Shown: positions 20,952 through 61,094, counted from the first letter of the stretch. The stretch is DNA of 64,000 nucleotides from Takakia lepidozioides (GCA_030704615.1 CM060734.1:43400001-43464000); one strand, 5' to 3'. Notes: generated by a model from the letters alone, not told the origin. A program made the numbers and translations.

Positions 20952-20960
20952 GTGAGTATT

Positions 20961-21710
20961 CCTACCTCTGTCAGGGGCTGACATTGGTAGTAAGACTTAC
21001 CTTCACATATAGAATCAATCCGGGTTTTCCAGATATCCTCTAGAAATCCCTTCACACAAGGATCAATTTGCTATGTGTGATTTGCCCAAAAACTAGGCCT
21101 CAAAAGGGGCTGGGCTGTTGGCTCAGCCTCGAGACTTTCAAAGTTAGTAAACAGAGGTACATGCACAATTCTCTTGATAGATTTGAAGAGAACGTCTCTT
21201 TGGTGAGAGAACCCCGGACAATGTATCAGAAAATGAATAATGTCTTTAGGTTGCCCACACAACGGGCAATTGCACTCTCCCTTTCCTCTCTGCTTCTGTT
21301 TGCTTATCAAAGTAGGCTTCCTGCCTCGAGTTTAAATTTCAGTCTAATGCCAAGAGTGGGTAGACCCTTGAGGTCATTCAAGATGTCCTCCCCCATGTCA
21401 TAGACTGGAAACAAGATCAAGGAAGTTTTTTGCTTAACTTCACTTTCATCAGACAATCTCATGACAACAGACATGGACACTATAGCCTCTAAGTCAGATT
21501 TATCTAGCAGGGTGAAGACTTGCAGTTCCAGGTCCAGGTACTTGAGAATCTCTTCTACTGTTTTCTGCCAGGACTTAGCATGCTTGACAGGGCGGTGGGC
21601 GGTCCTGTTTCCAAGATATAGAGTCGATTAATTTATGATATGTGGTATTGGACATATGCTGCAGCTGACCCCACCATCTGACCTTAAACTCATCTTGTCG
21701 GGAGCTTAAA
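20961..21710 (-). mobile_element. LINE fragment (same family as 8516-10773), truncated at both ends
   Basis: Reverse complement of ~9965-10691, including CPLCGQPKDIIHFLIHCP. Confidence 0.88.
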
Positions 21711-21711
21711 A

Positions 21712-27642: not shown

Positions 27643-27780
27643 TGGGATGCCTACAATACTGCTGCATTTATTAGGCATTCATAAAGAAAACGAGATGGAA
27701 ACATAGGATCATCTATCTCACCACAATTTTTGCTTGATCCATTTCATAATATTTATGATATATATATATATATATATATA

Positions 27781-28726: not shown

Positions 28727-31700
28727 CCCCTAAACGACGAGCCGACCCGAATCGGGTCGGCCTGATTTTTCATCCATCCGTAGCAAGCACGGATGAAGTC
28801 CGATGAACGAGCGGCTTGAACGAAAAATGTAGTGCGGAACGAGCTGCACACACAGGTCTTTATGGCGCCCCCAACTCCGCCGTCAGGAATTTTTTGAAGT
28901 TTGGAAATTGCAGGATTTTGGGTGGAGGAGGGGGCACGGCAGTTGACCGTCGACTTGGCAGGTGGCAGCGGCCACGTGGGTGGGATTTTGCAGGGGGGGG
29001 GGGGTGGCAAGCAGGGGTGATGAGGCACGGGGTGCATGGGCACCCGCCATGATGGCACCGCCCGACCCTGTCTTTTGCGCGCGTTTTGGCAACTCGACCT
29101 TCTTCTTCACAGCTCCCTGCCAGCTCCATCCCGCATGCATTTTGTGGCTTGTGTTTGTGTGCGACAGCATTTTGCGTTGGCACAAGGCCTTATTGATTTC
29201 TGGCTACCTGGGTACCCAACCCACAATTGCTGAGGGTTAGAGGCGGGTGGCGCGTCTGCACATTCATGAATTCGCAGGCTGGGGGGAGGCATTCTGTAGG
29301 CTCTGTCGTTGAAGCTAAGTCCCCTTAGCTTGTTGCTTGTCTGTGTTCTCTGATATGCTTTGCCGCCTCTGTTGAATGTCCTTCAGTGCGTTCGTTTAGG
29401 GCGCTGATGCGCATTCATGAATTCGTAGGCTGGGGGGAGGCAGTGTGCAGGCTCTCTCATTTATGCTAAGTGCCCTTAGCTTGTTGCTTCTTTGTGTCTT
29501 GGGATATGGCTGCCGCCTCTGTTGAATGAGCTTTAGTGCATTCGTTTAGGGTGCTGCAGCGCTTTATGCCTTGGCGGCCGTTGGTGTCATTTATGCATTC
29601 TGTGTCTCCTCATTTGCATTGCTTGTACTTAGGGGGGTTTATAGGGTCTGGGCGCAGGATGCTATGGGTCACAAGCACAAGGTGTGTGATGCCTTGGAGC
29701 CACCAACACCTCCGCTGCAGTATAAGAGGGCTGTTGAGGTGGTCACTCAGTGGGCGTTGATTGAGCAGCACTGTACTGAGGGGCAATTGAGGGACATTTT
29801 GGGTTTGCTGTGCATTTAGAAGGCATGTTAGTTTGATTTTGGGGTGGAAAGAGAGAAGGGAGGAAGGTGACAAAGAGGGCTTTAGTGAGGTTGTGAATGC
29901 TGTGCTTAGAGAGGACGTCTGGTCAGATGAGGACAGTCAAACAAATGAGGGATGCAGCGCGCCAGAAGCGGGAAAGGCCTGCAGGCAAGGAGAATTCGCC
30001 TCCTCATCGACCACCTGTGAGGAGAAGAACTATGAGAAGAAGGAGTGATGCGGGGTGCATAGTGGGCGGTAGCGCACAAATGCAATTCACCGCGGGTAAC
30101 TGTGCGCCTCCCGCTAACCCCTACAGGTCTCCTCTGCGTCATTGTCTTTCAATTTGCAAGGCTCTTCCCATGTGGGGCCCAATTTGGATGCTAATGGTTT
30201 AGACTTGTTGGATTGTGGAAATGGGGATGTGGAGATGGGGCTTATGGAGGGATATGAGGGCGATTCATGTGAGGAAATGGACTGGGAGAGTGGTGGGCCT
30301 GCCGAGGAGGTTGATGAGGTGAGTGAAGAGCCTTTTGCAGCTTTGTTCGCTCCTGCAAGTTGGGAGTGCAGAGAAACTACCTTCTGCAATGATAGAGAAA
30401 AATTCACTGGTCCCCCACCTGGGCCCATGCTGCGGCTGATTTTTGGTTCCCCTGTGGAATTGTTTTTCAAGTTGTTCTGGTCCCAAGCAACCCTGCTACG
30501 AATTTGTCGAGAGACCAATCGTTACGCGGCGGAGAGGGTGAACTCGAGGTGGTGCTTCTTGGAGGCCATTGGTTGTGCCAGAGCTACTCGCCTGGCCTGG
30601 TGTGTGTTTGTTCATGGGGATAAAGAGGCTGCCAAACAGCCGCTACTACTGGCAGTAGAGTGAGGTATTCTTTGCATGCCCTGTCATCAGGAAGGTCATG
30701 ACAAGAGATCATTATGAAGCAATCTTACGTTGCTTGCATTTGGTGGATAACTCGACGTTGGTGTCTGATCGTAGCAGTCCTGCGTTTGACAAAATTGGGA
30801 AAGTGAGATGGGCATGTGAAGACATTGCCAGTGCCTACAAACGGCATTGGAACCTGCACAAATTGTTGACAGTTGACAAGATTATGATAAGGTACAAGGG
30901 TAAGTATTGTGCTATACGGCAGTATATGCCTAAAAAGCCATGCAAGTGGGGCATCAAAGTGTGGGCCCTTGCAGACACAGTCAGTAGCTATGTGTATGAT
31001 TTTGATGTCTACTGTGGCAAGAATGGGGGCCCCGAGGGCATTAGGAAGAAGTCTGGCAAAGGTGAAGGATATGATGTGGTTTGGAGGCTAGTGTCTCCAT
31101 TGCATGGACTTGGCCATGTGGTGGTGACTGACAATTACTTCACATCACCAAGGTTGCTGTATGACATGGCTTTGCTTGGGACATGGGCCACTGGCACTGT
31201 CAGGGTCAATAGAAAGGGATTGCCTCCTTCCTTGACGCGCTTGTCCAAGTCCAAGATTGCCAAGCAATGGGACACATGGTGGCATATGCACCGCAACCGA
31301 CAAGTTGCTGCTTGTTTGTGGTGGGATAAGAAAGGCGTGTTCATGGTGTCATCCGTATCTCGGCCAGCATCTGGTCTGAAGTCACCTGTGACGGTGCGAA
31401 GGTTTGTGGGGAATGTGAGGGTGCAGGTGCCTTCTGTTCCAATGCATGTTCAATACCAAACTTACATGCGTGGTGTAGATGTACAAGACCAGATGCGAGT
31501 TGCATACAACATGCAGCTGAAGAATCATAAATGGTGGTATAGAGTGTTTTTTTTCCTTTTGGACACCACGATTGTCAATTCTTACATCTTGCATGTCTAT
31601 CACATGCGAGCGAGGGGGTTGCGTCCCCTGACCCATCTGGAGTTCTCGTTGGCCTTGGCACACGCCCTTACAACTCCTAGCAGGCTGCATGTGCGTCCGG

Positions 31701-31887
31701 TTCGTGCATCCATGTTGGCGACAGAGCCTGCCCGCTGGCATTCCTCTTTGCACAGCCCGCTTCGTTGTGTGTGCATCCGCTGTGGGTTGCGTACCCACTA
31801 CTTCTGTCCCCAATGCGAGGATGCATTCATGTGTCTTGGCAATTGTTGGCGTGAGGCACATCAACTCCGGGGTCGATGAACATGTGG

Positions 31888-38282: not shown

Positions 38283-38445
38283 CCAAGTTGTAGTGGGGCA
38301 CATACCACCTCGGAAGTGGTTGTGGGTTCAACCCACCAATTGGAGTCACAAAGGTGTCCAGTGTCCACCTTCCTAGCGGATGGCAGTAATTCTTCGGGGT
38401 CAAGAGACACCATAATTTGACACTTCCTTATGGAGGCGTCATATA
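38283..38445 (+). mobile_element. tRNA-derived SINE, family A
   Basis: CCAAGTTGTAG...CATACCACCTCGGAAGTGGTTGTGGGTTCAACCC (B box); related copies at 38665-38835 (-), 39213-39326, 63425-63580 and 63899-64000. Confidence 0.6.
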
Positions 38446-38664
38446 TAATATGTTACTTTAAAAAAAAAAATGAAACCTGGAGCGACTGCTCACAATTCAG
38501 GCCCTTGAGGAGGGGGAAAATTTTGACCCCCTTTCAGATAAGCCATTAGGCACACACCACCAGACAAATGTTGGTTGGTTATCATTTTTTTTCAAAGCTC
38601 ATGAGCTTTAGGTTATATAAGTTGACTCACACAATAATAACCTCGGGTTCTAGGTGAAATATGC

Positions 38665-38835
38665 AAAGAAAAGAAAAAGTATGACACCTCCTGAAGGAAG
38701 CATAACTTATGGAGTAAATTCACCCCGAAGGGTTACTGCCTTCCGCTAGGAGGACACCTTTATGACACACCAGACCGTGGTTTGAACCCACAACCACACA
38801 TCCAACATGGTATGTGACCATTACCACTACTCTGG
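38665..38835 (-). mobile_element. tRNA-derived SINE, family A (inverted copy with T-rich tail)
   Basis: Reverse complement aligns to 38283-38445; its tail ...GGAGGTGTCATACTTTTTCTTTTCTTT matches 39298-39324. Confidence 0.6.
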
Positions 38836-39212
38836 TTGTCACATTTGAAGACATAGAACCGACCCAGATATCTTTTAAGTTGACGGGAAGCGGTTATCGC
38901 TATGGTTTTGCGGCAAATAGTAGTTTTTTTTTGGTGTCCAAGTGTCTATATTGTACATTGAAGTTGAAACGGCACATTGAACTTGAGCGATAGGTTCTAA
39001 AGGCTAGGTTCTGCAGCCTGCTTAGGTACTTCAATTATATCCGATGGTTGGCAGGTTATATGTCGGTTATAATAGAGAGACCCGACTTGAAATATCACCG
39101 CAGGTTATGATAGTTTATGAATCGGCTTATAACCTGACCACATATTATTCAAAATTTCATAACCGTAACCTGCAAATAACCTTCATTCAAATGCTATTCA
39201 CGCGTAGGTTCA

Positions 39213-39326
39213 AGTGTTTCACCGGGTGTTTGAGTTGTGCAGTACTGACGGGTAACCCTTCGGAGGTGAAGTGACTCAATAAGTTATGCTTCCTTCAGGA
39301 GGTGTCATACTTTTTCTTTTCTTTTT
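39213..39326 (+). mobile_element. 5'-truncated SINE A insertion with a 27-bp flanking direct repeat
   Basis: TTCAAATGCTATTCACGCGTAGGTTCA at 39186-39212 and 39327-39353 flanks the SINE 3' tail. Confidence 0.6.
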
Positions 39327-39356
39327 TTCAAATGCTATTCACGCGTAGGTTCAGGT

Positions 39357-39534
39357 TGTCGTGCGCATACATAATCGCTACACAACTACATCGCTGTCCA
39401 AAACCACACAACACATGTGCACACCACACACTAGTATACCACTAGTCCAGCCACTAGTCCAACCACTAGGCTACAGCTAGTCAGTCACTAGGCTGCCACT
39501 ATGCTGCCCACTATGGCAGTCACTAGTCCACACA
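39357..39534 (-). repeat. Putative 3' LTR (short, 178 bp) of the Gypsy element
   Basis: Minus strand: AGGGGGGCGAT then TGTGTGG...GCACGACA; end similar to 19921-20002. Confidence 0.55.
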
Positions 39535-39794
39535 ATCGCCCCCCTAGCTGGTGCTTAGGTCCCTCTAAGTCCAGGTAGCCACAAGATGTGATAGTGACCA
39601 TAGCCTCACTAAGTCCTCCACCACTATCCCTACTACACTCAAACTCGATAGATCAAGAGGCCGGGTGCAAGTGTTGCCCCATCATTAGTCACCGTCTTGT
39701 AGCCTGTGAACTTGAGCTTGGGATCTTATGTATTGACTCCTATAAGCTTGGCCTCCCATGTCTTGTTAGCTGCCTCCAGTCATGTCCATTGCCA

Positions 39795-40805
39795 TTATCC
39801 CAAGCAGTGTGGACACAACCAATCTCCGTCAGGAACCTTCTCAAGAGGTGGTGTCAAGCATCCCATATGCCAACCCCTTGAGCATCGATCACACACCAGC
39901 ATGGTGGCTGCCCTTTTGGCAGACCCACAGAGCATGCACCTCAAACCTGCAGGTACCACTGCCAAGTTTGGGTCAACTCTGCCATCGACATTGGGAAGGT
40001 GACATGGCGCACAATTACGCACATGGTCCTTCCAAGTCATGCCATCCCGACCCTCCAAGATCAGGATCCCTGAGGGCAACACCTCTCGAACCCTCAGAAT
40101 AACACGCCCTGCAGTAACATCCAGAGTCGTAGGAGCAGTCTGCTGTAAATAAACATAGTCACCAGGGCTAAACCTCCGAACCCCAGGACGATGTCCTCCA
40201 CCACGTATAGTAGCATACCTCAACGTATCACGGTGCTGTGCAATGGCAAGGTTCTCAAAAGCCATGGGCATGACTTTCTTGAACAACTCTGCACGCTGAT
40301 CACATGCACGTACCCACATGTCCGGATCGTCAAGGTTAAGGACTTGAGCAGTGTCCCTACGAATGGCTGCAGGCAAATTCGGCTCTCGGCCAAAGAGAAG
40401 GAAATATGGTGAGAAGGAGGCAAGTGATGCTTGTTTGCTGAACCTGTAGCCCATGGCTAACCAAGGAACCTGAAGATCCCAATCTCCTAGGTGTCCCTTC
40501 TGCAAGCCATACTTGCGCAAACCCCTCTTCACCGTCTGAACAACTCTCTCTACTAAGCCATCGGCCTCAGGATGATCCCGAGAAGTGGTGCGGTGGTCTA
40601 TCAAGGCTTTATCACACAAAGCCTGAAACTCCCCCAAGAACTCTCTCCCTTGGTCCGTGAGTACCTCAGCTGGAGCACCAAATCGGCTAAGCACACGATC
40701 CAAGAATGCATACGCAGCCCCCTCAGTAGCCTTGTCAAGCAATGGAACCAACTCAATCCACTTGGAGAAGTGCTCCACCATCACCAACACATATCTGTGG
40801 TGCAC
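39795..40805 (-). pseudogene. Gypsy integrase core (N-terminus deleted) with C-terminal PHD finger (39804-39938)
   Basis: RYVLVMVEHFSKW, FGAPAEVLTDQGREF, HPEADGLVER, SPYFLLFGREP; CMLC..MLVCDRC..WHMGCL..WLCPHC fits Cys4-His-Cys3. Confidence 0.9.
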
Positions 40806-40808
40806 AAC

Positions 40809-42200
40809 CTAAAAGTCATACTCCTGGAGTATGAGTGCCCACCGTGCAAGCTTCCCCGTAAGCTTGTCTGACTCCATCAACCACTTGAGTGGCTGGTGAT
40901 CCGTGACAAGGGTGAAAAGATTGTCGTATAGATAGCACCTAAAGTGTGCCACGGCCCACACTGCAGCTAAGCACTCTCCCTCATATGAGCTGTACTTAGC
41001 CTCTGCAGCGTTGTTCGAGCGGCTAGTATAAGCCACTACGAACTCTCTTCCCTCATCATCCACTTGTGTGAGCACCGCTCCAAGCCCCAGCATGCTCCAA
41101 TCCGTATGCAGCTGAAAGGGACGCCCCCTGATAGGTCGTCTCCGGATAGGCACCGAGGTCAACCTCGCCTTGAGCTCTTGAAAAGCTTGTTCCTGCTCAT
41201 CTTCCCACTGCCACTCCTGGTCCACCTTGGTCAGCTTGGTTAGAGCCTTTGCAATGGTACTAAATCCCTTGACAAACTGTCTATAATAGTTTGCCAACCC
41301 ATGAAAGCTCGAACTCGGCTCACATCCGTGGGGCGTGGAATTTGTGCAATGGCCTCTACCTTAGTCTGCTGTACCCCCAATCCTCCAGGATATATCATGT
41401 GACCCAGATACTCAATCTGGTTGTGGAAAAACTTGCACTTTCCCGGATGCAACTTCAATCCGTGCGCTCTCAACCGCTCCAATACCACCTAAAGGTGTCT
41501 CTCATGCTCCTCCATCGTAACACTAAAGATGATGATGTCATCTATGTAGCACCGAGCAAAGTCCACCCCTGCTAGAATCTTATCCATGACTCTCTGAAAC
41601 TCTGCAGGCGCATTCTTAAGCCCAAATGGTAAGAACCGCCACTGATATAGGCAATCCTTGTCGTGCTCATTGATCCCCCAGAATGTCGTCTTCTGCTTGT
41701 CCGCCTCCTTGATTGACAACTGGTGATATCCGGATCGTAAATCCAAAGTGCCAAGGACCTTAGCATGCCCGATGGCATCAAAGATCTCCTCTGGTGTTGG
41801 CATGGCATACTTATCGGACTTGGTCTGACGATTTACAGGCCGGTAATCACCGCACATACGTCTCTCCGTCCAATTGCCATAGACATCTTTCTTGGCTGGC
41901 ATCACTGTGGCTGAAGCATACTCTCCACCAGAGAGCTCCACCAAACCTGCCTCCCAGAGATCTTGAGTCCTCATCTGAATCAAAGACCTCTCCATGTCAC
42001 TGTATCTATAGGGTCTCCGAAAGATTGGCGTGTCAGTGGCCAACTCAATACGGATCTCTTGACCCTTCAGTGCTCCCAAGTCTTTCAAACTGAAGGCAAA
42101 GCAATTCTTGTAAGCCCTCAGGAACCGCCGTATACGTCGTCTTTCTCCTCCGGTGACAATGGGTCCAATGTCAGGCTCCCAATTGTCCTCCGTAACTGCA
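40809..42200 (-). pseudogene. Gypsy reverse transcriptase and RNase H (stops and a frameshift)
   Basis: RRMCGDYRPVN, LDLRSGYHQ, LPFGLKNAPAEFQR, YIDD, KCKF..YLGH, LHTDWS..GLGAVL, YSSYEGECLA, TDHQPL, RWALILQEYDF. Confidence 0.95.
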
Positions 42201-42549
42201 ACCTTAAGTCCAGTGGGCTTAGAGGTAGAGGACGCGTCCAGTGGTTGCTATGTTGGAACCTCTTGAGCAGTACTCCCTACCTGCTCAGTCAGTGATAAGG
42301 CCTCATCCTACCCCATCATCTCATCCTCAAGGACTTCCTCCACCCGAGAAAAATCCCCAACCTCATCTTTCATCGCCACCTTGGCTGCCAACTCCCTCTG
42401 AACCTCGAGCACCTCCCACGTGTGCCATGGATGCATGCACCCCGTGGTCCTCACATGCTCGCCCTCACTCACTGCCTGTACCGTCTCGGTAGGCAGAGAG
42501 ACCATCGAGGGAAGTGTACTCCGCACTCTGCGTTGCTCAGCCATAGCCA

Positions 42550-43440
42550 AGCTGATAATCCAGGTCAAGCAATTGAGATCCATTGCTTGCCCCAACACTT
42601 GACGATGTGATGCCTCAGAAAGAGACGACACCGCTGTGGTACCAGTGGTAAAACCCATTGCCCGCTCACGCTCGTTAGCATTAGGCTCCACTAACTGCTG
42701 CAACTGAGCATCCCACAGGAGGCCAGGTCCACTATCCCGGAAAGCATGCGATCCTGGGAAGCTGAGCAGTGTAGGTAATGCTGCTCGTGGTTGACCCACC
42801 TTGTTGACCACTGCCAAAGGCGAACGGTCATCGTGTCTCACACGCTGAGACTGCCTCCCTGTGTCTAGAATGCTATCCACTGTGAGATGTGCTGGCCGCT
42901 GCACCCCATCAAATGCACGCTTGAGCAGTGCGGGTGGCATCAAGTTAGTCCACCATAGCCATGGACGATGAGCCCGTGACCCCACTGTAGCTGCATCTAG
43001 CAACACTGCTGACCCAAGCCACGACCGGACTTGATGCACACTGGCCATCACCCTGGCCCGAGAATCGCCCATCAGTGGCACATTCTCCAAGATGTATGCT
43101 GGAGATACAGCTTGATGAAGCTGCAAGTGGCGCAAAACCCGCACCATCTCCCAAACAGACCCGACCTCGAGTCTCGCAATCCATTGCCATGCCCGGCTGA
43201 TGAATGCCCTTGGCAGGGCCAACCTGCCACTACCAGATCAATGGAGCCAACCCGCTCCAAATCCTGGCCAACAACAACTCAGGGTACCGCTCCACCAACT
43301 TAGCAACTTGGCGAAGTGAAACGCGTCGTGCAGTCTCATCCATCTCCACATATAGGTAACGCCGAACTCGTATACCTGCCTGTAACACAACAGCCAATCC
43401 GGTGCCGATCCCGCCAAACAAGTCCAGAAGACAAATGCCT
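42550..43440 (-). pseudogene. DNMT3-like C5 cytosine DNA methyltransferase domain within the Gypsy polyprotein (2 frameshifts)
   Basis: Motif I LDLFGGIGTG, II YVEMD, IV VAGWPCQGHS, V DSRSGLF, VI ILENV, VIII LLDAATVGSRAHRPWLWWTN, IX ERERAMGF, X RQVLGQAM, all in canonical order. Confidence 0.92.
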
Positions 43441-43583
43441 TCATCCGGATACTGCCACACAATAGGTGTGGTGTCCAATAGAGACAACTGAGGTGGTCCT
43501 GGTGCAATCCCCGCACTCTCCTCCTCTCCTGACGGTACAAAAGCCTCCACCCAGGCTTGTTGCACCCGTCAATCAGCATCCCG

Positions 43584-46345
43584 CTACAAATCCTTGCTCG
43601 TGCCCCACAATGGAGTCTGAGCAACCATGGTAGGCAACTCCGCCATACCATACATGTCATCTTGCTCTCCCGGAGGTGGCACATCCTCTGAATGAGCATT
43701 GCCCTCAAGCAACTCTCTAGGCCAACTCACTGCCGCTAGTGTCGGCATCTTGCCTCGTTGGGCAACCGCAATTCCTCCTATGAACGTCACAGGGAGCTGC
43801 ACACGCCGGCCCTCCCCTGACTGCCATGCAGGCCTATAGGAAGCTGACTCCTCCCAAAAATCCAAGGTGAAGCCCATGGGGTACAACACTGCCCCACCAA
43901 CCAGGACATCATATGAGACCGCGTCTGTTACAATGGCCTTGGCTCGCATCACTGAGCCATCTGTAGGGTGATCCGGCCGTAGTCTGATAGCGAACTCACG
44001 CCGTGTCATGCCCCGAGCCTGCTCCGATCCTTCCAGAGACGTCTGTATCTGGAAAGGACAAGGGTCCATATCCGCCTCCGTGAGGCCCAAGCCTGCAATA
44101 GTAGCTCTGCCCAGCATCAATGGCTGAGCTCCCGAGTCCAACAAGACCCGCAGTGGCCGGTACCTCTTGCCTGCCGGTCCACTCAAACAGAAAATGCCAT
44201 CCTGGTTGTCTAACATGACAACTCCAGGTGTCACCATGGCGTGCTCAATGGCTGGCCTAGCTGGCAGCTCCATCAACTTGGCAGCTGCAGCTTGCCATGG
44301 CGCCGCCGTGGCAGTCTTGACCCTCAAATCCGAGGATCCCTCCGGAACTACACCTCCCACTATCTCCGCAGAAGATGAAGTAACCTCCCCACTCTCACAG
44401 AGTGTAGCTGCCAGCTTGAACACCTCAGCTGGTCTTACCCCCGGCGTCGCAATCATGGTAGCCGAGAACAATGGAGCCTGGCACACAGATGTGGCCGCTC
44501 CTAGCAGCACACTAGCTGTCGTAGCCTTGGCAACACTAGGTAGTGGTGCTACCCGTGTAGCTCTTCCCAATGGCATAGTAACCTCCGCCTCGGTAACAGT
44601 CGGGCGAAAACTAGGTACCATGGATGGCGTCGACACTGTCTCCGCCAATGTGAATGACTGAGGAAGCCTAGCCTGACGGCTTGCCTCCTCACGCTGTGGA
44701 TCCAACTCCACCTCTGCATCTCGTGGCTCAGGAACTCGTGCTGCTCCTCGAGTCACGGCTGCAGCAGACTCCACCTGCACTAGTGGTAGTGCTGCTCCAC
44801 ACATGAATCCCATGCCTCCCATATCTCCTCCCTCAGGAGCAGGAGGTGGACCATCCGGCCTTAGAGCCGGTACCACCTGAGCTGTAGCCATGGCAGCGAG
44901 CCTCTGCTCTAGCTGCTGAAGCCGGTTGGCCATGCCTTGGTCAACACCCTGACCTCCGCGTCCTTGGCCATGTTGAGCTTGCCCTTGGCTTGCACCTCGT
45001 GGCTGGCCACCTTGTCCTCTCTGGGCTACTCCACCTTGCCCCCGGCCACCATTGTTCCCTTGGAACTGGCCTGGGCGCAACTCAGGATGCAAACCATAAC
45101 ACTGGGCCTCTCCATGCCCGTGTTTGCCACAATGCCCACACTGCAACTGTGCAGGTTGTGCATGTGTCCCTCTGGGCAATCCTTCTTGATATGGGGTCTT
45201 CCACATGTCCAGCATACCACATCCGCCCGTTGTTGGCCAGCAAATGAAGGGAGAGACCCCTGCATCTGAGGTCCTCTCTACCCTTCCTGAGCTTCACCTG
45301 AGCCCCCTTGTTGCCTTGAGCACGTTGAGGTAGTGGTTGGCTAGGAGCACCACTACCCCGTGGTGTCTCCTTAGCAAATCCCACCATAATCACTCGTTCC
45401 TCCACCATGTTGAGCTCTATCCGCTCTGCCAGCAAAAACACATTTGTTAAGGTGGGTTGGGCCGCTTGTAGGAGAGTTGCATCCCGCACCCTTCTCCTCA
45501 GCTCCTTGTCCAATATCCCATACCAGAATTGGACTGCCTGAGCTTCCGTAACCCCTTGGGTTACATTTATCAAGCGCCTCATGCAAGTGAAAACCTCCCT
45601 CAAGCTCTCGGTCGGTTTCCGTTGGAACTCTTGCAAGCTCCGCAACTTCTCTGTCCTCACCCCTTGGTAGTTCCCTCTCAACTCTTCGAAGAACTCCACA
45701 ACAGGGTTGAAGGCAGGCACGGGTACTAGTGCTGGTGCGGTAGTGGCTTGGGTGGACGTCGTAGCTACTGTACCACCAGTCCCACTAGTCCCACTACTGC
45801 TTGCTGAAGTTGCCGGTGCAGCGGCAGGTGTAGCCACTGCCTTCGTGGCTCTAGTGCCCCTAGTGATGGAGACATAGTCGAGTGACCAGTACATCCTCCA
45901 CTCCTCGATCTCAACCTCATGCCTCCGCCTGAACTCATGGTAATCATCCATAGGTGGCCCCTCAAGGTGCTGAAACAGCCCCTTCCATGCCATGAAATGC
46001 GTAAATAGTTGTGGATTGCGCATTTGCTGCAAATCACACCAACTATCAAACTCTTGGATAAAATCATCCAACTCGATGGTGCCCACCGCCCCAGAGTACC
46101 TTCGTGGGCCCCTTGGTAGCTCCATACATCTCCTCCATTGTGTCCCACAACAATGGCAAGGAAACAACTTGCACTGCCGGTATGAGTTCTCCTGATTCAC
46201 AATCCGAATCAGAACCTTCTGTAGAAGACACAGGAGGTACAGGTGGCCTAAACCGCACACCTCGTCTCGTGTACCCACTAGTATCGCTAGTGCTCAAACC
46301 GGCACTGTCCCCAGCAACTAGTGGCACCTCCGTGTTGACACTCAA
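43584..46345 (-). pseudogene. Gypsy Gag (two CCHC zinc knuckles) and aspartic protease, frameshifted
   Basis: LDDFIQEFDSW..., LQEFQRKPTESLREV, CWTCGRPHIKKDC, CGHCGKHGHGEAQC, VLLDSGA, DVLVG. Confidence 0.88.
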
Positions 46346-47044
46346 CCGGTTATGAACATGTCCCTAACCCCCTCTCCACAAGGTAACCGGGTAGAGAACC
46401 TGTTGCAGCTTAGGGTTTGGAATACTAAGTTCCTAACATAGCCTACACTTGTACCTGCATCCACCGCAAGCACTCCTATGGTTGGCTGGTCATCACCTCC
46501 AACCTCACCATAGGAGAAACAATGATGGTCTGGCTGGTCATCACCCCAGCCTCACCATCGACAGCATGCTCTAGGACTGGCCGGTGATCAAATCCGGACC
46601 AATCACCTATAAAAACAAGCGCCCACACAAAACTAGCATGACGCACAGTCAAGCATGTAGGTATGGAGGGGATCCAAACACAAGAAATCAGAACGACAAC
46701 TCCCCCACCACAAAAACAACTCCACAGTGTTGCTCCTGCAAGGACACCCCAGCCCAAACCCGGACTGACTCTTGCCTCCACCTACGGAAAGGTCTTGGCC
46801 TAATGAGAAGGTGAAACTACGAGGAAGAGAAGCTAAATCAATGCCTAACCCCAGCATGCCCTCATCCCAACACTCTTCCTCTCCTCTCTTCCCTTACTTG
46901 CATGACCATGGAAATATCATGAAGATACTCCTCAAACCGCCTCCACGAGCTTCAAAATTCGGCCTTCAAGACCACATGTCAGTCCTCAGGCAGTCCACCA
47001 GTGCCTCCACGAGTCAGCACAGGCCGTCCACAGGTCAACACGGG

Positions 47045-47436
47045 CCATCACAGACCAGCACAGGCCCACACAGCTCACAGGCCACAACCTGTCACAGCCC
47101 TACACAGGTCACAGGGTCACAGCCCCACAGGCCGCAGCCTGTCACAGCCCATCACAACCCCAAAGGCCACAGGCACAGCCTGTCGCAGCCCTACAAAGGT
47201 CACAAGGTCACAGCCCCAAAGGCCACAGCCTATCACAACCCCTCACAGCCCCATAGGCCACAGGGCACAGCCTGTCACAGCCCGACACAGATCACAGGGG
47301 TCACAGCCCCAAAGGCCACAGCCCGTTACAGCCCGTCACAGCCCCACAGGCCAGTGGGCACAGCCTGTCACAGCCCCTCACAGCCCGTCACAGCTCGCCA
47401 CAGCCTGTCACAGCCCGTCACAGCCCGCCACAGCCC
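47045..47436. repeat. Minisatellite of GTCACAGCCC-like ~10-mers in the Gypsy 5' region
   Basis: Directly visible repeated (G)TCACAGCC(C) and GGCCACAG motifs. Confidence 0.85.
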
Positions 47437-47756
47437 AAATGTCAATCCAGGGGTCAAGGCAGATTTAGGCCCTGGAGTGGTTATCTTCACGGCAAGCGCG
47501 GGAGGCTCATCTTTCTCGAGTTGAGCCTCACCGCGCCTAGCTATGGCGCCGTAGTGTGGATTCCCCATGGCGTGGGGTGCACTTGGCTTGACTTGTATTT
47601 GAGTGATGAGGTTATATATGCATGAGTTTATGTTTGTGAGCTCGTGCTTGTATTCTTCTTCTTTATTATTCGAGAAAGATGAGCTTCCCGCCCTTGCCGT
47701 GAAGATAACCACTCCAGGGCCTAAATCTGCCTTGACCCCTGGATTGACATTTGGGC
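47433..47756. mobile_element. Foldback/MITE-like element with 87-bp inverted arms
   Basis: 47433-47519 and 47670-47756 are reverse complements with 2 mismatches; 150-bp spacer; no TSD recognised. Confidence 0.75.
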
Positions 47757-48069
47757 CCATCCCAAATGTCAATATGTAAAAGCTAGCTATTTCCTAGCTA
47801 GTTTCAAACTAGTGGTAAAATAACTTGACAAGGCGTAGGTGATCCTAGGTTCAATCCTTCAACATGTGCCTTCAGATCGTCCATTGGGCATGTGTGTTGA
47901 GCAGTAGGCTCTGAAAATTCACTGGACGTTAAGAAACTTTATCTTGATCTTATCTCTTATGTTCATGACCTCTGGCTATAGTTACCCTTACCCGGCAATG
48001 TAATTAACAGTGCATAACCGACCAACACTGCACCAGACCAACCGGTCAATCCACACACCAGACAGGGCA

Positions 48070-48137: not shown

Positions 48138-49309
48138 TTATTTATTGGCTCTATCCCCTTCAGGCCAGAGTCAATGGAGAAAATCTGGTCTACCGACCTT
48201 ACACCGTGTCAAGAGTATGATTGGTCTAAAAAAGCTCTCAAGTATAAACCATGTGTTGCTTCAATGGACAGAGCCTCTCGCGCCTCTCGCGGTTTGTGGC
48301 TTGTTTATTTTTCTCTTATATTTTTCTTGTAAGGGCGTTGGCCGTTTACTTTACTAAGGGGATGTTATTATTATGTCACTTGACATTTGGGCTGGGTGGT
48401 CAATAGAATATGAATATTTCTATACCCCACTGTTTCTATATCCCCCCCCCTTGAGGATCCGGATACAATCTTTGAGACCAGATTTTCCACGAACATTTTT
48501 GGCCAGCAGCGGGTGTTGTGGGTTATATCGGAAATCTTCAGTGATGGATTCTAATTTCTGAGGAACCAACATATGATCTCGCGATTCCAATTGGTTGAAA
48601 GATTCGCCCATCGGATATTTCTGGAAACGATCGTTCGAAAAATGACACAACTTTCCGATTTTAAAAATACTTATAAAACATTTTCGAATTTTTGCAAGTT
48701 TGGCCTCTCTTTCCTCCTCATTCATATTTTAGATTCTAATTGAACAGGGGCCACCAGAGGCCTGAGAGCTTTATTTGTAAAAAATCATAAACCGTTGATC
48801 ATGGATCTCTTCCTGGAGAATCGAGACTAAGCGGTGCCGATCGATTGTGGAAGCCTGGCAGATGGCAACAATTGGTCACTTATCGGAAGCGGGCAACAAT
48901 TTACACAGACTGGAACGGACCGCCTGAATTATTTGCTGATAACGGCACCGGACTAATATTCTGTCAAGGTTCTTTTCCAACCCTTAACAGCTTCGAGATA
49001 TAAGCCGCGGGCTTTGGCTTTGGCTAATAATACCTGGCCTGCATTTTCCCCATCGCTTTTATTTATTTTTTAATTTTGTTTTTCTTACCGAGTTCGTTGA
49101 TTAATGGGACCGGCTTCGTAGTCCCCGACGATTCTCTCGATCTGACTTAAATCGACCGACAATATGTCACTTCTCGTTTGCGGACTTTTACTTAGGAATT
49201 TGTCGCATGTGTTAACAGAGAGCGAATCCGTGATGCCCTCAACTATCAACCCTCCGCAGTTGATCAATCACTCTCTCTATCAACTCTTCTGTCACTGCCT
49301 CTGCAACTC

Positions 49310-49705: not shown

Positions 49706-50553
49706 TTGGGTAGTTGTGATTATACGAAGTGGTGAAGATTCAAGTCTCTCAAGCTCGACTGGCCTTTTTCTCCTCTTGGGCTTATTTGGCAGCGTGGGTT
49801 AATGGAGTGGGTTTGGAAGCTGTACGTAGTGTCTCTAGCTTGTAAGTTAGGATCAATCCGCTCTGGAGATCTCCGCATTTCTAGCTGCTCGTATTGCAAG
49901 CGATGAGTTCCGGAAGATTTGAAATCCATCGGCATTGTTGGCTCAGACTGGAGGATCCAGAGTTGCGCTGCAGATTTAATCTCATCAAGCCACTTACCCT
50001 GTTATGACAAGGCATGTTTGCTTTACGTATGATACTCGATCCCCCCTGAAAAAAGTTCGAATGGAGACGGAGTCATCGCATGTGGTAAGCCTAGAATGAG
50101 CCTAGAATCAACTGTTCAGATCCTCTGGAAACAAGCTACAGTACATTTTAACTTTGGATAATTTAGAATAATGGAAAACCAAATTATCGTTCTACTAGTC
50201 AGTTCTGACTTCGGTCACAAACTATACTGGTAGATTCAGTAGTTATACTTCTGTAGGTCGAACTAGGGTGCCAGAATTCCAATGTTGTACAACATGTGAT
50301 CAAGCTACATATGATAATTACCACTGTCAGATGCCTATTAGCTGGCTTGTTAAGAAGCGATCCACATAGTGCAGTGGAATCTAACAATGATTCGCCTTGT
50401 GTATGGACCAGGTCACGATCCAGTAGCAAGCTGAGCGGCCTTGTAACTTGCTCTCTGAACTGAAGGACCTCCCCCAACATTTCAGTTCGAGCTCCAGATT
50501 CGTTTGGTCCACACCAGTGGGATATCCTGGAAGTCTTCTAGCCTCAGATTGCA

Positions 50554-52953
50554 ATGCCGCCCATGATGGGGTTGAGGACCGACCCCTCTACTCATCTGCT
50601 CGGAAACCCACTCTATGTACACAACGAGCCACCTGTCACAGGATTGAAGCTAGAGAGTCGGCCTAACAACTGTCTAGCACCTGGAGCGTTGGCTGACCTT
50701 TTCCAGAAGATGCAGCAGGGTCTGCAGCAGGGTCCTGCATTCTCCCCGCACCAGGAGAAACCCAAGTTTCACAGGAGGCGGCAGGAATTGCCAGCCTTGG
50801 CTCCTTCCCCCGTTCAGAGCTCAGCTGCACTGGCACCCAAAAACGACTTCTCACGTGAGACTGAAGGTATGGAGACAACTTCTGAGCATTATCTTGGGTC
50901 TTTGCTCTTACGGGAAATGCCACAGCTGAGGGCAGTACTGATGCAAGCTGGCCAAGTGTCACATCAGCAAAGTCTGCTACTAGAACATCTCACGGGATTG
51001 TTCCAGGGACTGGCACATTCTCAAATGCAGGTGCCCCAAAGTGGCACAGAAATATATCGCCATAACCACCAGCACATGCAAACTGTCTCCCCACAGTTTG
51101 ATGAGCTATGCAATGTCGACAGGAGTCTGACACAGGAGTCGGCCTTGAGTAGCAACCTTTGTAATCATTTGCACAGATTTGCATCAGGGGTTGACAGGGT
51201 CAAGGGCCAACTGGAGCTTGACATATCCTCTCATTCTCTACCGGCGCCCTCGGTTTCCAGGAAACGCTCATTTTCTGATCTTGCAGAGGAAAGCTGTAAT
51301 TCAGAGCTCAAGTTGGGGATAGGCGGTCGAAGCAACAGTTGCAGAGAAAGCGAGTTTGAAATTTCCCCTGCTTCACCTAATAAGATCTTCAAAAGGGAGA
51401 ACAGGTCAGATCTAGGCTCAGCTAATCTAAGTCTTGCGCCTCCAGTGGGTCGAAGTCAGTTTAGTTCCCAGGCAGCCTCGCAGATGAATGCGTCAAATAC
51501 ATTTGCTCGAAATGAGAACTCCAAACTATATTATCCATCATATGGTGTGGATGTACCTCGCCAAAGTGATTCCCATGCTCTCTTGGTTCAAGCGGTAGGA
51601 CTTCAGGAAAACTCAAGTCCTCACGCAAAGGCCAATCGTCAGCCTCATTCAACTCTGAGCTCCAGCTTCATTCAGCAGTCTGCGCGCCCCATACTGAATT
51701 TAAACTATATCAAACGCGAGTGTGAGTCATGCGTGTCAAGGAGCGACATCACAGAAGTTACCCAAAATGAGGACAACGAACCCGATATCCCTCCACCAGT
51801 CAGACTGGTGGCCGCTGGTCGTGAAGGTACAGCAACAGAACCTTCGGGTTTGCAGTTGGTCCATTTGCTCCTTAGGTGTGCAGATGCCATCTCTAAGGAT
51901 AACATAGAGGTGGCAGCGAGATTACTCGATGAACTGTACACGCATGCATCTGTCTATGGCGACTCAATGCAACGGACTGCCGCATATTTCACAGAAGGCT
52001 TGGCAGCCCGCATTGTAGAAAAGAACTCCCCCGTCTATCGGGCCTTCATGCAGCAATCCTGTGTAGATGATTATCTCTCATCATTCACTTCGCTCTACAA
52101 AGTCTCCCCGTATTTCCAGTTTGCCCACTTCACGGCCAACCAGGCAATTCTGGAGGCCTTCAAAGGGCATGATATAGTCCACGTGATAGATCTCGACATC
52201 ATGCAGGGCTTTCAATGGCCTGGTCTCATCCAGTCCTTGAGTGAGCGACCAGGTGGCCCTCCCCATCTACGCATTACTGCAATAGGAACACGGGTCAGAT
52301 CCATCCAAGAGACGGGGCGGCGCCTGGCGGCCTTTGCTGAGACCTTCAATGTCTCTTTCCAGTTTCATACTGTGGTGGGGGAGCTCGAGGAGTTGACTGC
52401 CATGGACCTTGGCACTAGACCTGGTGAAGCATTAGCCGTGAATTGTGTGTTGCAACTGCACCGTTTGCTGAATCAGTCGACAGGAGAGAAGCTTCAAAGG
52501 TGCATAAACAGTATTTTTGGCCTGGCGCCATCTGTGGTGACACTTGTGGAACAAGAAGCAAACCATAACGCACCCACATTCTTAAGGCGCTTCATGGAGG
52601 CGTTGCACTACTACGCTGCGGTGTTTGACTCTCTGGATGCCTCCTTCCCTGTCGGAAGTGATGAACGTGTCAAAGTTGAGCAAATGTATTTTGCTCAGCA
52701 GATCAAGAATATTGTGGCCTGTGAAGGACCAGATCGAACAGAGCGGCACGAGAAGCTGGAGATGTGGCAAAGCCGAATGACGCTTGCCGGATTCCATCAA
52801 TTGCCCCTCAGCCCGCACGCAATCACCCAAGCTAAACTACTGCTCTCACTCTCCCCATGTGAGGGTTACGAACTCACAGAACATCCATGTGGGTCTGTGT
52901 CCCTTGGTTGGCAAGACAGACATCTTCTTGCTGTATCCACTTGGTCTGCTTGA
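50554..52953 (+). CDS. GRAS-family transcription factor (scarecrow-like), intronless, 799 aa
   Basis: Uninterrupted ORF; LHRI (GLQLVHLLLRCA, GDSMQR), VHIID (AHFTANQAILEAF..VHVIDLD..QWP), PFYRE (RFMEALHYY), SAW (IVACEG..ERHE..W, LGWQDR..STW). Confidence 0.96.
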   Translation: MPPMMGLRTDPSTHLLGNPLYVHNEPPVTGLKLESRPNNCLAPGALADLFQKMQQGLQQGPAFSPHQEKPKFHRRRQELPALAPSPVQSSAALAPKNDFSRETEGMETTSEHYLGSLLLREMPQLRAVLMQAGQVSHQQSLLLEHLTGLFQGLAHSQMQVPQSGTEIYRHNHQHMQTVSPQFDELCNVDRSLTQESALSSNLCNHLHRFASGVDRVKGQLELDISSHSLPAPSVSRKRSFSDLAEESCNSELKLGIGGRSNSCRESEFEISPASPNKIFKRENRSDLGSANLSLAPPVGRSQFSSQAASQMNASNTFARNENSKLYYPSYGVDVPRQSDSHALLVQAVGLQENSSPHAKANRQPHSTLSSSFIQQSARPILNLNYIKRECESCVSRSDITEVTQNEDNEPDIPPPVRLVAAGREGTATEPSGLQLVHLLLRCADAISKDNIEVAARLLDELYTHASVYGDSMQRTAAYFTEGLAARIVEKNSPVYRAFMQQSCVDDYLSSFTSLYKVSPYFQFAHFTANQAILEAFKGHDIVHVIDLDIMQGFQWPGLIQSLSERPGGPPHLRITAIGTRVRSIQETGRRLAAFAETFNVSFQFHTVVGELEELTAMDLGTRPGEALAVNCVLQLHRLLNQSTGEKLQRCINSIFGLAPSVVTLVEQEANHNAPTFLRRFMEALHYYAAVFDSLDASFPVGSDERVKVEQMYFAQQIKNIVACEGPDRTERHEKLEMWQSRMTLAGFHQLPLSPHAITQAKLLLSLSPCEGYELTEHPCGSVSLGWQDRHLLAVSTWSA

Positions 52954-54152: not shown

Positions 54153-57100
54153 TCAGCCTCCACGCTTCCGCATACAATCAATGAAGATTGTGGCAAGTCG
54201 CTCATACATAGGGCCCTCTCTGAACATTTTGTGCACTCTCTCTCTTCCCATTTCACCCATTTGCATGGCCAGATCTGGGTGATCAAGTAACCAATGCAGG
54301 TGACGGGCTAACACTGGGATACCTCTGTTTCCAACAGGGTGCAAGAGGCCTGTCACATTCTCTTCCACAAGCTCTTTGGTTCCCCCCGCTTCTGTCCCCA
54401 GTACCTGCAACAACAAAGCAGCTGCGTACGTTACTCTTGTTGCTTCGTGTCCCTCGAACTTGTCTCTGACTGAGAATCGAAATGTCTCACACTCTCTCTC
54501 TCCACCCTAAGATGATTGACGCTAGTTCTTGGAAGCAAGACCATCCTGTTAAACAGGCTAAGTCTTGGCGGAAAAGGGTAGAAGAGATACATTGTCGAGA
54601 CCTTTGAAACCCACTACAGTACCCTTGGCAGAATTTCTAGGTCTAACAGTGAGGGGTCCGCTGAAGAACGGAAGGACACAGTTGGAAAAACTACTCCTAT
54701 GATTCAAGACAGCCCTGATAAATTGGAGTATATTTCATTTCAAAGGCTTACAATGCTCCCATTAGTTCTTTTGAGATTGTAGAAGCAATTGAGCATTTAA
54801 ACGGATATAAAGCTGGTGGACCTGATGGCATTGTCAACAAGCTTATCAAGCACAGTGGCGATCCCATGATAGGGGCCCTTGTACTTCTCTTTAACCTTAT
54901 CTGGAGGTGCAGAGGGATCAACTCTGAGGTCAAGGAAACCATATTTTCTTGCGTTATTAGACCTGCCTTGGAGTACGCATCTGCAAAATGGGTTGATAAC
55001 TCCAACCAGGCTAAGTCTCTAGAATCCATTCAAGTGGGGTTGCTTACGGAGTGCATGTCAGCATGCTCCAAAACAGCCAATGTGGCTGTTCGGGGTGAGT
55101 TTGGCATCCCTTCTTTAAGCTCCCGACGAGATGAATTCAAGGTCAGATGGTGGGGTCAGCTGCAACATATGTCCATCGTCAGATATCCTAAGTTAATCGA
55201 CTCTATATCTTGGAAACAGGATTGCCCTGTCAACAGGCTAAGTCCTGGCGGAAGAGAGTAGAAGAGATTCTCAAGGATCTGAATCTCAATCCGCTAGTCT
55301 TGAACGTGCTGGAAAATCTGACTTAGAGGCTGTAGTGTCCAAAGCCATGTCTGTTGCCACAAAATTGTCTAATGAAAATGAAGTAGGCAGAAAACTTCCC
55401 TGAACTTGTTTCCAGTCTGTGACATGGGGGAGGACATCATGGATGACCTCGAGGGTCTACCCACTAGACTGAAATTTAAACTCAGGGCGGGAAGCCTACC
55501 TTTGAACAGCAAACAGAAGCAGAGAGGAAAGGGAGACTGCAATTGCCCGTTGTGTGGGCAACCTGAAGACAATATTCATTTTCTGATTCATTGTCCGGGG
55601 TTCTCTCACCAGAGAGACACTCTCCTCAAATCTATCAAGGGAATTGTGCCTGTACCTCTTTCTACCAACTTTGAAAGTCTCGAGGCTGAGCCAAAAGCCC
55701 AGGCCCTTTTGGGGCATACTTATTGGGCAAACCACACACAGCAGATTGATGCTTGTGTGAAGGGTTTTCTAGAGGGTATCTGGAAAACCCTGATCAATTG
55801 TTTATTCCAAGGTAAGTCTTACTACCGGCGTCAGCCCCTGACAAAGGTAGGTTCTCTCCCTTTGTGTTCCGCTCAAACTGGACCCGGGTCTATGGCCACA
55901 AGGCTACGGCAAACAACGTCTTATGAGTACATTCTCTCACACCACCGGCAGAAAAGAGAAAGATCCACCCTTGTTTAATGTAGGATTTGAGAAAGTCTAT
56001 TGTAGAGATGTGTTCATCATTGAGACACTTCAAAGACGTGGCATCTCTAACCAACAGCACAAAAGTATTGATGCATACCGGTAGACCAAAGGCCATAGCT
56101 TCAATGGTCACCCTCCCAAACGTCTCTCCAATACCCTGCAAGACAAGAGAATTGCTAAGAGGGAGTCTATCGGCAGCAAGGTTGAGCCAGAAGTTCTCTC
56201 CAACTACGAATTCTCCTTCTTGCCAAGTGCTCACAAGAAAATGTAAGACAATAACTCTTTGATTACATTTCTACAGGGGAGATAGGGGAACTTGAGAGAC
56301 AAAATCAAGAATCAGCCCTTCCATTGTCTAGACAGAAGGCCAGAAAATTACCTGCGCATTCATGACGTATGCATCTGCAGCTGCATAAATAGGAGAGACA
56401 TGAACAGTAGCTTTGGTCCACAGCAACTCGTTTGCCAAGCGTGGGTGTCTATTTAACACCCCATATATTCTTTCCAAATAAGCAGGCTTGTTGCTCTTTG
56501 AGCCCACAGATCCTATCAGTATCTTCAAGCTGCGGTTCATTGCAGGCTTCTCTGTTTGGCTCTCCAGCAAGGTTCTCCTCTCTGCTGTTTCTGTGCGCAC
56601 ATAAGTGCCTAGGTTAACCCTCCTCCATAATCTTGAATTCTACATATATACATCACTAGCATAAGAGGTTTACAAGCTTTGTGGGAGGCAGTAAGATACA
56701 ACGTGCATAGAATTGCATGACTTTGGACCAAATTATGGTAGCCCTATGGCAATGAAATAGCACCTGGAACAATCTGACAGTTGAATTTCAAAGATCCACC
56801 TTCAGGTGTAAGTAGAACTGATAGCAAATTGCAACCTTATTTTCAATAAAAAGTCAAATATAAGCTCTTGAGTACCATTCACCTCTCCTTCATTGGTAGA
56901 TACTAGCTATACAAACCAGAGGATTGACTCTAGTCCTCACGAAAGTGCTAAAATGCTCAGAGAGTTTCACCAGATGAGCATTGGGATTACAACTACAGCG
57001 AGTACTCACCAAGAAGATCTGGTGCCTTTGCATTGTGCCTCCCTTCTTTCTTCATGTAAATAAGGCTTGATTCCACATCTTTTCCACTGTCCCTCCTTGG

Positions 57101-59950: not shown

Positions 59951-61094
59951 TGTTGATGTCTCGTAGGGGTTGGAGATTGTTCGTTGCCATAGCCTAGGGC
60001 ATCTGCGCTTGCTGGTTGCTTGCTACACCTAAGCTGCCAATTGTATGCAGATGCAGCTCTGTTCTCTTGGTCTCCATAGCCTGCACGAGCTGTTACGACC
60101 TACCTATTTCTCAACATCCACCTGTCTTCTTCGACATTGTTTCCTTTGTATTCAAAGTCAACGCCAGTCGGGAATTCCGCCAACTGTGAATGATGTAAAG
60201 TGGAAGAATGCAGGAAATGTGCGCAAGAATTTTCTCCCTCCCATTTAAGTCTTTGAGATTCGGATTTGACATGGAACAAGCATACAGAAAAAGGAAACGA
60301 TGGACATCGGTAAAAAGTACGGAGTTTGCTTCAAATTTAACCACTGGCCAGCTCAATCAGGAAGGCAGCTGGGGAAAGAGACTGAATCGAGTCGGAGCGA
60401 CCCACTTCCAGCACGTCCTCCTCTAATCCAACTCCACCTCGATAGAACCTAACATTTTGGTCAAAACTTCGCGTTACGGAAAGTTCAACACCAACCCACA
60501 AATCTCAACTCCACCTTGTGCCTCGGGGTTTCAAATCAAAGCACCCTCTTTCAGATCACAACCACAGGGCTCCAGAGTTAAGGAGAATGCACACGAAATG
60601 GAAATGAGGGCATACCGGCTTCAACCTGCTTGCGCTTCCATCCACCAATGCTGCCTCTCTCACCCTCTTTCAGATCAAGCCACTGAACAAGCACAAACAG
60701 ACATCCAAAGCCACAAACAGGAATCTGTCCTGCACTTAACGCATTCCTCCACAATCTCCCTCTCAGACACTCTACATGTTTTGTGTCGATCCCCTTCCCT
60801 TGCTGCCCCGCACAAGACAAGCCCAGATTCTGTTTCTTCCATCCCCCTCACTTGTCTCATTTGTCAACAATTTATTTTAAACTTTTTAACGGCCACAAGT
60901 TGTACCGAACTTACTTACTCGGATCACAATGGCTTTCCTTTTCTCTCTATAATTTTTATTTTTAAGAGAGAAAGGGAAAACACCGGGGAGCGACAGCTCA
61001 CAAATCAGGCCCCTTAATAGTGAGAGGAGAAAATAACCTCTTTCACAGTAACCCACCATGAAGGCCTAGGAATGGGACCATACCACACCCCTCA

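Follow-up and report, generated by a model that had tools for sequence, protein, structure and literature searches.

A bryophyte Ty3/Gypsy family whose Gag-protease frame ends in a DNMT3-like cytosine methyltransferase

Retrotransposons carrying a cytosine methyltransferase are known from the charophyte Klebsormidium nitens, whose Gypsy element KnitGypsy-Dnmt3 combines a DNMT3-like domain with terminal repeats in the order A-coding-B-A-B (de Mendoza et al., 2018; PMC5890265), and, according to the available text of the same paper, from Symbiodinium, whose SymbioDIRS-Dnmt3 methylates CG sites de novo in yeast. Later papers place such elements in “streptophytes,” no land plant being named in their accessible parts (10.64898/2026.05.21.726589; PMC12344493). 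Why a transposon should carry a transposon-silencing enzyme has remained open since 2018, because the hosts are difficult experimental organisms and no activity of the Gypsy enzyme was seen in yeast. Here, we describe a Ty3/Gypsy family of mosses and liverworts, starting from a decayed copy on the minus strand (47830-39357) of a 64,000-nucleotide stretch of the moss Takakia lepidozioides (GCA_030704615.1 CM060734.1:43400001-43464000; the whole stretch is called the window below).

The window element has the domain order Gag, CCHC knuckles, protease, DNMT3-like methyltransferase (DNMT), reverse transcriptase (RT), RNase H, integrase core and PHD finger. A first, sequence-only reading had recognised a Gypsy element with C5 methyltransferase motifs between protease and RT, and both observations hold: Pfam matches and comparison with relatives recover the Gag-protease-RT-RNase H-integrase order, and each motif named there is present on the minus strand, in the canonical order though divided among three frames. 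Following the protease LLDSGA at 44144, these are motif I (LFGGIG, 43421), II (YLYVEMD, 43358), IV (WPCQ, 43221), VI (ILENV, 43093), VIII (AHRPW, 42973), IX (ERERAMGF, 42673) and X (RQVLGQAM, 42604), ahead of the RT motif YIDD at 41548; the labels I to X follow the usual convention. The domain itself (42530-43452) is broken. Compared with the Marchantia protein P0003, to which its three pieces are 63-73% identical, it is interrupted at ~43270, where ~22 residues around motif III are absent and the frame shifts, and by a further frameshift at 43153; both the loss of motif III and the aberrant motif VIII, which reads RPW vs. RxR in relatives and thus lacks the second arginine, had been seen before and are real.

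The sequence-only reading had staked the domain on a match to PF00145, and none of ten window peptides gives one, because the domain is cut by the deletion and the frameshifts. A profile of 215 natural relatives, from which the window was excluded, matches three of the 1683 stop-to-stop window peptides, all of them in the DNMT domain (E 2e-84, 5e-21, and 1e-14), and the window domain with X at the breaks reaches E 2e-102; PF00145 itself is exceeded at its curated cut-off by 13 of 15 relatives and also by the related loci L025 and L001. Among solved structures, intact domains match DNMT3A best (E 8e-11 and 2e-11), with DRM2 far lower (E 2e-4 vs. 8e-11), while the largest window DNMT fragment found no match in a PDB search and the motif I fragment reached DNMT3A only at a weak E of 0.02. 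An alignment-based structure model of the L001 domain (pLDDT 94.9) was matched by DNMT3A, B or C in all 32 rows listed by Foldseek (best E 1e-19, TM 0.73). Motif order, closest solved structures and modelled fold agree with the earlier assignment to an unpermuted DNMT3 type, not DRM. PC, ENV, RxR and FxGxG are intact in P0001, P0003, P0041, P0048, L001, and L025, and within 217 domains PC/EC is found in 194, the ENV-type motif in 181 and HRxR in 195; judged by its motifs, the domain of intact relatives is predicted to be catalytically complete.

One claim of that reading, namely that the methyltransferase shares a polyprotein with RT, finds no support in that form: in this lineage, the domain closes the Gag-protease frame and is followed by a conserved stop. 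DNMT-to-RT junctions are in frame in 32 of 41 cases (frameshifting linker indels account for the remaining nine), and in every one of these 32 the frame is closed at one common position (24 TAG, 8 TAA, no sense codon), with linkers of 291, 333, 354, and 414 nucleotides (nt) keeping the frame in four families. Full-length Gag-protease-DNMT proteins of the closest families (Marchantia, Calypogeia-cluster and metagenome rows) end 58-80 amino acids after the domain. The enzyme hence belongs to the Gag product, and a stop always separates it from RT, RNase H, integrase and PHD finger. In the window, this stop is followed by CAA CCA (TAG at 42250, context 42242-42250), as in L025; the Sphagnum-like family has TAG CAA CCC and L058 has TAG TAG CCA, and an additional window TAG at 42310 is without counterpart in relatives. 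UAG-CAR-YYA is described in the available text of PMC3542737 as the motif that marks type I readthrough in plant viruses; the match is exact in the window and L025 and one letter off in L058 and the Sphagnum-like family.

Judging from this context, RT is probably reached by readthrough. Several observations weigh against this reading: some of the junction rows show an insertion already counted, which leaves the four families as independent cases; the Sphagnum-like CAA CCC departs from the consensus; and this family has an ATG two codons past the stop, which would permit reinitiation. No stable RNA structure was found after the stop in any of five rows (z-scores -0.5 to -1.0), and a contig of presumed RNA, which may be DNA, spans the stop unspliced. 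A splicing route of the kind known from Ogre elements, with TAG as 3′ splice site, or reinitiation could replace readthrough here, and splicing could conceivably even leave out the DNMT; we consider this unlikely, although in the Sphagnum-like family the TAG is preceded by a U-rich run and followed by the ATG. Several observations speak against these routes. In the window, L025 and L058 there is no pyrimidine tract upstream of TAG; eight rows have TAA, though possibly by decay; the frame is preserved across four linker lengths; and two families lack an early methionine, the first one past the stop lying 84 codons (window) and 47 codons (L025) inside RT, with conserved RT residues upstream of it. 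As a separate observation, unrelated elements of ~830-880 nt are inserted in the DNMT-to-RT linker of L008 (2300-3250) and L046 (13800-14700).

Relatives were found well beyond the moss host, and three layouts occur among them. The largest window fragment retrieved 40 proteins among 6963 candidates, of which 30 carry PF00145 and whose names include Marchantia polymorpha (15), Calypogeia (1) and Sphagnum (2), and a further search, started from a distant relative, retrieved 53 proteins, Closterium, Monoraphidium and Haematococcus being among the names. A library of representatives at 50% identity yielded 221 clusters at E 1e-30 or better; 82 of the 141 newly listed clusters show another retroelement domain and 59 the DNMT only, most of these being short. 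The viral collection gave a single methyltransferase match, weak and distant. In the bryophyte type, Gag, protease and DNMT are followed by the stop; in the Closterium type, protease, DNMT, RT, RNase H and integrase form one frame; in the chlorophyte type, represented by P0224, P0234, P0024, P0032, and relatives (named ones from Monoraphidium and Haematococcus) and by the cluster members of P0283, which are therefore uninformative as to the stop, the DNMT lies between RNase H and integrase, followed by the PHD finger. P0224 carries in addition a Tudor domain after the PHD. L025 (618-6809) is a nearly intact copy of another family, reading from Gag to integrase in one frame with one premature stop besides the junction stop.

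If readthrough takes place, the stop alters the expected stoichiometry, with the methyltransferase in excess over RT and integrase. We lean towards a mechanism in which the enzyme at the end of the Gag-protease frame methylates the cDNA of its own element within the particle. The majority of ribosomes would end at the stop and a minority read through, so that the particle would carry the methyltransferase at a Gag-like level and little RT and integrase; the protease would release the methyltransferase, which could then act on the element's cDNA inside the particle. A new copy would thus arrive methylated and either resemble host heterochromatin or silence itself, limiting harm to a haploid host, while the PHD finger of the integrase may read histone H3 tails at the target.

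Two results count against this mechanism. CpG at codon junctions is depleted in the element (27 observed vs. 86 expected), but no more strongly than in two other frames of the window, a piggyBac-like one (5 vs. 23) and an unrelated one (8 vs. 27), and a specific footprint of self-methylation was consequently not found. The available text of PMC5890265 further reports that KnitGypsy-Dnmt3 gave no methylation of yeast DNA, an outcome which its authors regard as inconclusive. CpG and CHG depletion was considered as a marker of self-methylation and set aside as not diagnostic; L025 is extreme for CpG (10 observed vs. 102 expected, no matched control) without loss of CHG.

Alternatively, the enzyme could work in trans, with host chromatin or existing copies instead of the cDNA as its substrate, its Gag-level output serving copy-number control or a reshaping of the host methylome. 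Placement in the abundant upstream product, which uncouples the enzyme from RT, would fit such a role, and the moss DNMT3b methylates heterochromatin de novo (PMC6453930, available text). However, fusion to Gag points to packaging, and a DNMT placed between RNase H and integrase, or continuous with RT as in the Closterium type, favours the cDNA as substrate; we consider action in trans unlikely. Also unlikely is the possibility that the domain persists in a role that is not catalytic or not directed at DNA, e.g., binding of cDNA or RNA, methylation of the RNA genome, or shielding of cytosines from editing. The lack of observed activity of the Klebsormidium domain in yeast (PMC5890265, as far as its text is available) and the missing CpG footprint are in line with it; the modelled fold, which is that of DNMT3, is not, and neither is the retention of the catalytic cysteine, ENV and RxR in 83-90% of 217 domains, many of them from decayed copies.

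The methyltransferase is a genuine part of the family. Scanning of metagenome data turned up 77 loci, which share this domain order, and the DNMT comes next after the protease in all 57 of those that hold a protease and extend for 500 nt or more beyond it, a count that is not fully unbiased, as one of two seed patterns sat in the DNMT. Between the window, L025 and Sphagnum-like families, non-synonymous divergence (dN) is 0.21-0.30 for DNMT, 0.16-0.21 for RT and 0.37-0.49 for protease, with synonymous sites at or near saturation; the selection check proposed earlier thus finds the DNMT under purifying selection between families. Among the Sphagnum-like copies, which are decayed, DNMT has an omega of 0.48-0.62 and RT one of 0.27-0.70, as expected after death of the copies. 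Trees of RT and DNMT with 42 rows recover the same groups at a support (SH-aLRT) of 99; five of 47 rows (P0209, P0230, P0028, P0190, and P0213) had been dropped as near-duplicates or partial domains. In the host, read depth is even across the element. The methyltransferase is therefore a fixed, selected part of the family, and it belongs to the element, as the sequence-only reading had supposed. That it could be a nested insertion or a processed host DNMT3 fragment private to the window copy, as the lack of a direct PF00145 match in the window fragments might suggest, is refuted for practical purposes by the 57 of 57 loci, the congruent trees, purifying selection, even host-run depth and the common domain order.

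Both trees set the chlorophyte type apart from the rest and unite the stop type in one group at SH-aLRT 99. They show co-inheritance of RT and DNMT among carriers but not a single origin, because they are midpoint-rooted and contain no DNMT-less Gypsy and no host DNMT3, none of the latter having turned up in the best 150 of 3032 representatives; a Klebsormidium-labelled sequence is likewise missing from them. This composition weighs against drawing too much history from the trees. Tentatively, and as a broader view to which we give rather little weight, a single ancient green-plant lineage might have passed from chlorophytes via Zygnematophyceae to mosses and liverworts, retaining an active DNMT3-like enzyme while relocating it in the polyprotein. 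In land plants, a leaky stop would bring the methyltransferase into the particle at capsid stoichiometry, the element would prime itself, and end-joined cDNA would be integrated by a DDE integrase, with a palindrome in the long terminal repeat (LTR) as the cutting site. New copies would then be pre-methylated and circularly permuted.

The terminal repeats are unusual in their own right. An ordinary LTR pair is absent from the window, and relatives show either A-coding-B-A-B (complete in L018/L036 and L024, partial in L001, L043/L005, and L046/L050) or the short form A-coding-B, which is present in nine rows and to which the window belongs; the B-to-A junction of the long form is found in host contigs. 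Perfect 4-bp duplications together with TG..CA ends occur at all five distinct related sites with both ends. A start with TGG after A was not found, no comparison with a tRNA library having been made; the site there complements A itself. In 11 of the 19 rows with related A repeats, the match covers 10-15 nt and involves a stretch 28-33 nt past the TATA box, and a purine tract precedes the first B. Since a self-complementary primer site and a purine tract are marks of Tf1-type self-priming, these features suggest that the real LTR may be B plus A, and that the integrated forms would be circularly permuted, with their opening at the palindrome where B meets A. Reverse transcription would in that case be self-primed, and, though we hold this less firmly than the steps above, the integrase might open end-joined cDNA at the palindromic junction, giving rise to the A-coding-B-A-B and A-coding-B forms and the 4-bp duplications. 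Two points tell against this: a circle model predicts A-B-A-coding-B, which is seen in none of 19 rows, and the short form could alternatively arise by recombination between B copies. The primer stem of L024 folds as proposed, but with an overall z of only -1.4 at the chosen start. In L043 (15778-16066) and L005 (5531-5819), an A-to-B joint still contains one primer-site copy together with part of the purine tract, as expected of an end-to-end cDNA joint, in an element that is also rearranged.

The window copy can be delimited as follows, all coordinates referring to the minus strand. The element in its short form with TG...CA termini spans 39357..47830, based on the sequence, on read depth that is high inside and falls outside, and on the same pattern of termini in relatives; of the extent proposed earlier, 39357..47432, the 3′ limit stands and the 5′ start is ~400 nt further out. 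It is flanked by the halves of a 4-bp target-site duplication at 47831..47834 (left, three of four letters equal to the right half) and 39353..39356 (right, from the sequence and the duplications of relatives). Repeat A, the presumed promoter and R-U5-like part, occupies 47440..47830 as judged from related loci, in which A measures 339 nt, its 3′ end being approximate as the window has a single A copy. An 87-nt inverted repeat with arms at 47670-47756 and 47433-47519 (47433..47756; one-stem fold, z -22) lies at a position analogous to the primer site of relatives and is likely the self-priming stem, in which the 5′ end of the RNA would pair to the site following A; an interpretation of 47433-47756 as a miniature inverted-repeat transposable element (MITE) was rejected, since it sits inside the end of the element. 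Tandem repeats of the 5′ leader, detected by a repeat search, follow at 47083..47449.

The coding part continues with a frameshifted Gag with CCHC knuckles (45100..46138; 61% over 289 amino acids to P0003 by tblastn, zf-CCHC weak at E 0.038) and the aspartic protease (43780..44210, LLDSGA at 44144-44127), whose Pfam match is weak in the window (E 0.063) and exceeds the cut-off of PF13650 in relatives. Downstream of the stop, RT (41243..42181; PF00078 E 1e-19) contains one premature stop and a frameshift at ~41300, and RNase H (40812..41290; PF17917 E 4e-36) is followed by the loss of ~690 nt including the integrase zinc finger, the gap being 21 nt vs. 712 nt in L018; the corresponding H2C2 domain is present in L025. 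The integrase core with its C-terminal PHD finger (39938-39800) covers 39795..40808 (PF00665 E 5e-11; PF00628 E 5e-11), the closest solved PHDs being those of CHD4, PHF12, KDM5B, and ATXR5. After the integrase, a PHD finger was found where a chromodomain was looked for, and no scanned peptide matched a tyrosine recombinase, with rve and H2C2 domains instead. A polypurine-tract-like motif kept in related families (39536..39549; 85-90% match over ~50 nt) precedes repeat B, which ends in CA (39357..39535; placed by comparison with the ends of relatives). With frameshifts or stops in Gag, linkers, DNMT, RT, and RNase H and ~690 nt lost, the copy is dead, as first stated.

In contigs from four public host runs, 39357-47830 is covered far deeper than its flanks. 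Some contigs link position 39357, the end of the element, with its start at 47830, and loose contig ends are found exactly at the two deletions of the window, besides indels at two of its frameshifts. Although read depth is not equivalent to copy number, the family is clearly abundant in the host, and other copies differ from the window at its breaks.

Around the element, MITE-like nested inverted repeats (38665/39265, 38371/38704, 38316/38777) lie at 38296-39324 right after its 3′ end, a 30-nt direct repeat is found at 39186 and 39327, and a 17-nt match to the inverted-repeat arm, perhaps a scrap of another copy, lies 550 nt upstream at 48380-48396. An intact, intronless GRAS gene, RAM1-like by its named matches, is located at 50542-52953 (+), 2.7 kb from the 5′ end of the element; its best named matches are from Physcomitrium and Ceratodon, and it is sister to all other moss-group rows in a 28-row tree (SH-aLRT 95), a position that fits an early-branching moss as host. 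Further frames are a piggyBac-like transposase at 30118-31879 (+; PF13843 E 9e-56), a DUF4218 frame at 11549-12922 (-), a domain known from CACTA-type DNA transposons, and a frame ending in a glycosyltransferase family 4 domain at 58589-60022 (-; PF16994). A tandem duplication with a period of ~2.9 kb and 190-nt subrepeats extends over 21700-27650, and a repeat of ~850 nt occurs three times (9850-10690, 20960-21710, 55000-55850; 89-93% alike, one inverted).

For experimental work, Marchantia polymorpha is of special interest: it is transformable, methylome data exist, and it contains several stop-free Gag-protease-DNMT frames of 1278-1281 amino acids with intact catalytic motifs (e.g., Mp4g09160, Mp5g06330, and MpVg00370), so that the question of what the transposon gains from its enzyme becomes directly testable. 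Bryophyte annotations could wrongly list such copies as DNMT3 genes of the host, and surveys relying on LTR finders would overlook the family given its putatively permuted LTRs, which also point to an unusual integration route.

Compared with host DNMT3, such as human DNMT3A/B or Physcomitrium DNMT3, the domain shares fold and motif order; it is, however, only ~23% identical to DNMT3A, intronless, embedded in a retroelement frame and without PWWP or ADD domain. The following comparisons refer to the elements as given in the available parts of the cited papers. SymbioDIRS-Dnmt3 is also a retrotransposon with a DNMT3 and split repeats (PMC5890265), but uses a tyrosine recombinase, unlike the DDE integrase, TG..CA ends and 4-bp duplications found here. 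With Tf1/Tcn1-type Ty3 elements and Tj1 the family shares a primer site that complements the 5′ end of the same RNA (PMC6317226, PMC4600332), here as a sequence signature only; Tcn1 has a chromodomain at the place of our PHD finger, and Tj1 of Schizosaccharomyces japonicus likewise has an in-frame stop before pol, which in its case follows Gag, with ordinary LTRs and no methyltransferase. Chlamydomonas Gypsy-7a_cRei is another green-lineage Gypsy with a PHD finger in its polyprotein (10.1101/2022.06.16.496473), yet it has near-complete paired LTRs and no methyltransferase among its listed domains.

The closest described system remains KnitGypsy-Dnmt3. Both are Gypsy elements whose DNMT3-like domain is intronless, not permuted and under purifying selection, and both have A-coding-B-A-B repeats of a DIRS-like kind. 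According to its authors, the DNMT of KnitGypsy-Dnmt3 is in the frame of RT and RNase H, an arrangement seen here only in Closterium-type relatives, whereas in the bryophyte type it closes the Gag-protease frame before the conserved stop. Its host is a charophyte, while hosts here are mosses and liverworts, with relatives extending to Closterium, Monoraphidium and Haematococcus; no Klebsormidium-labelled protein was among the 40 or 53 matches or the clusters examined. The family probably works like KnitGypsy-Dnmt3 and shares its lineage, but without the shared RT frame. Neither Marchantia nor Sphagnum is mentioned in the searched text and supplements of PMC5890265, and no description of a bryophyte DNMT-Gypsy, of the stop or of a permuted-LTR reading was found in the available parts of 10.1101/363937, PMC6453930, and 10.1101/2022.06.16.496473 or in literature searches, whose coverage lay mostly outside subscription journals. 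What is new relative to KnitGypsy-Dnmt3 is the range across land plants and chlorophytes, the conserved UAG-CAA-CC(A/C) stop, and the reading of the A-coding-B-A-B repeats as permuted LTRs.

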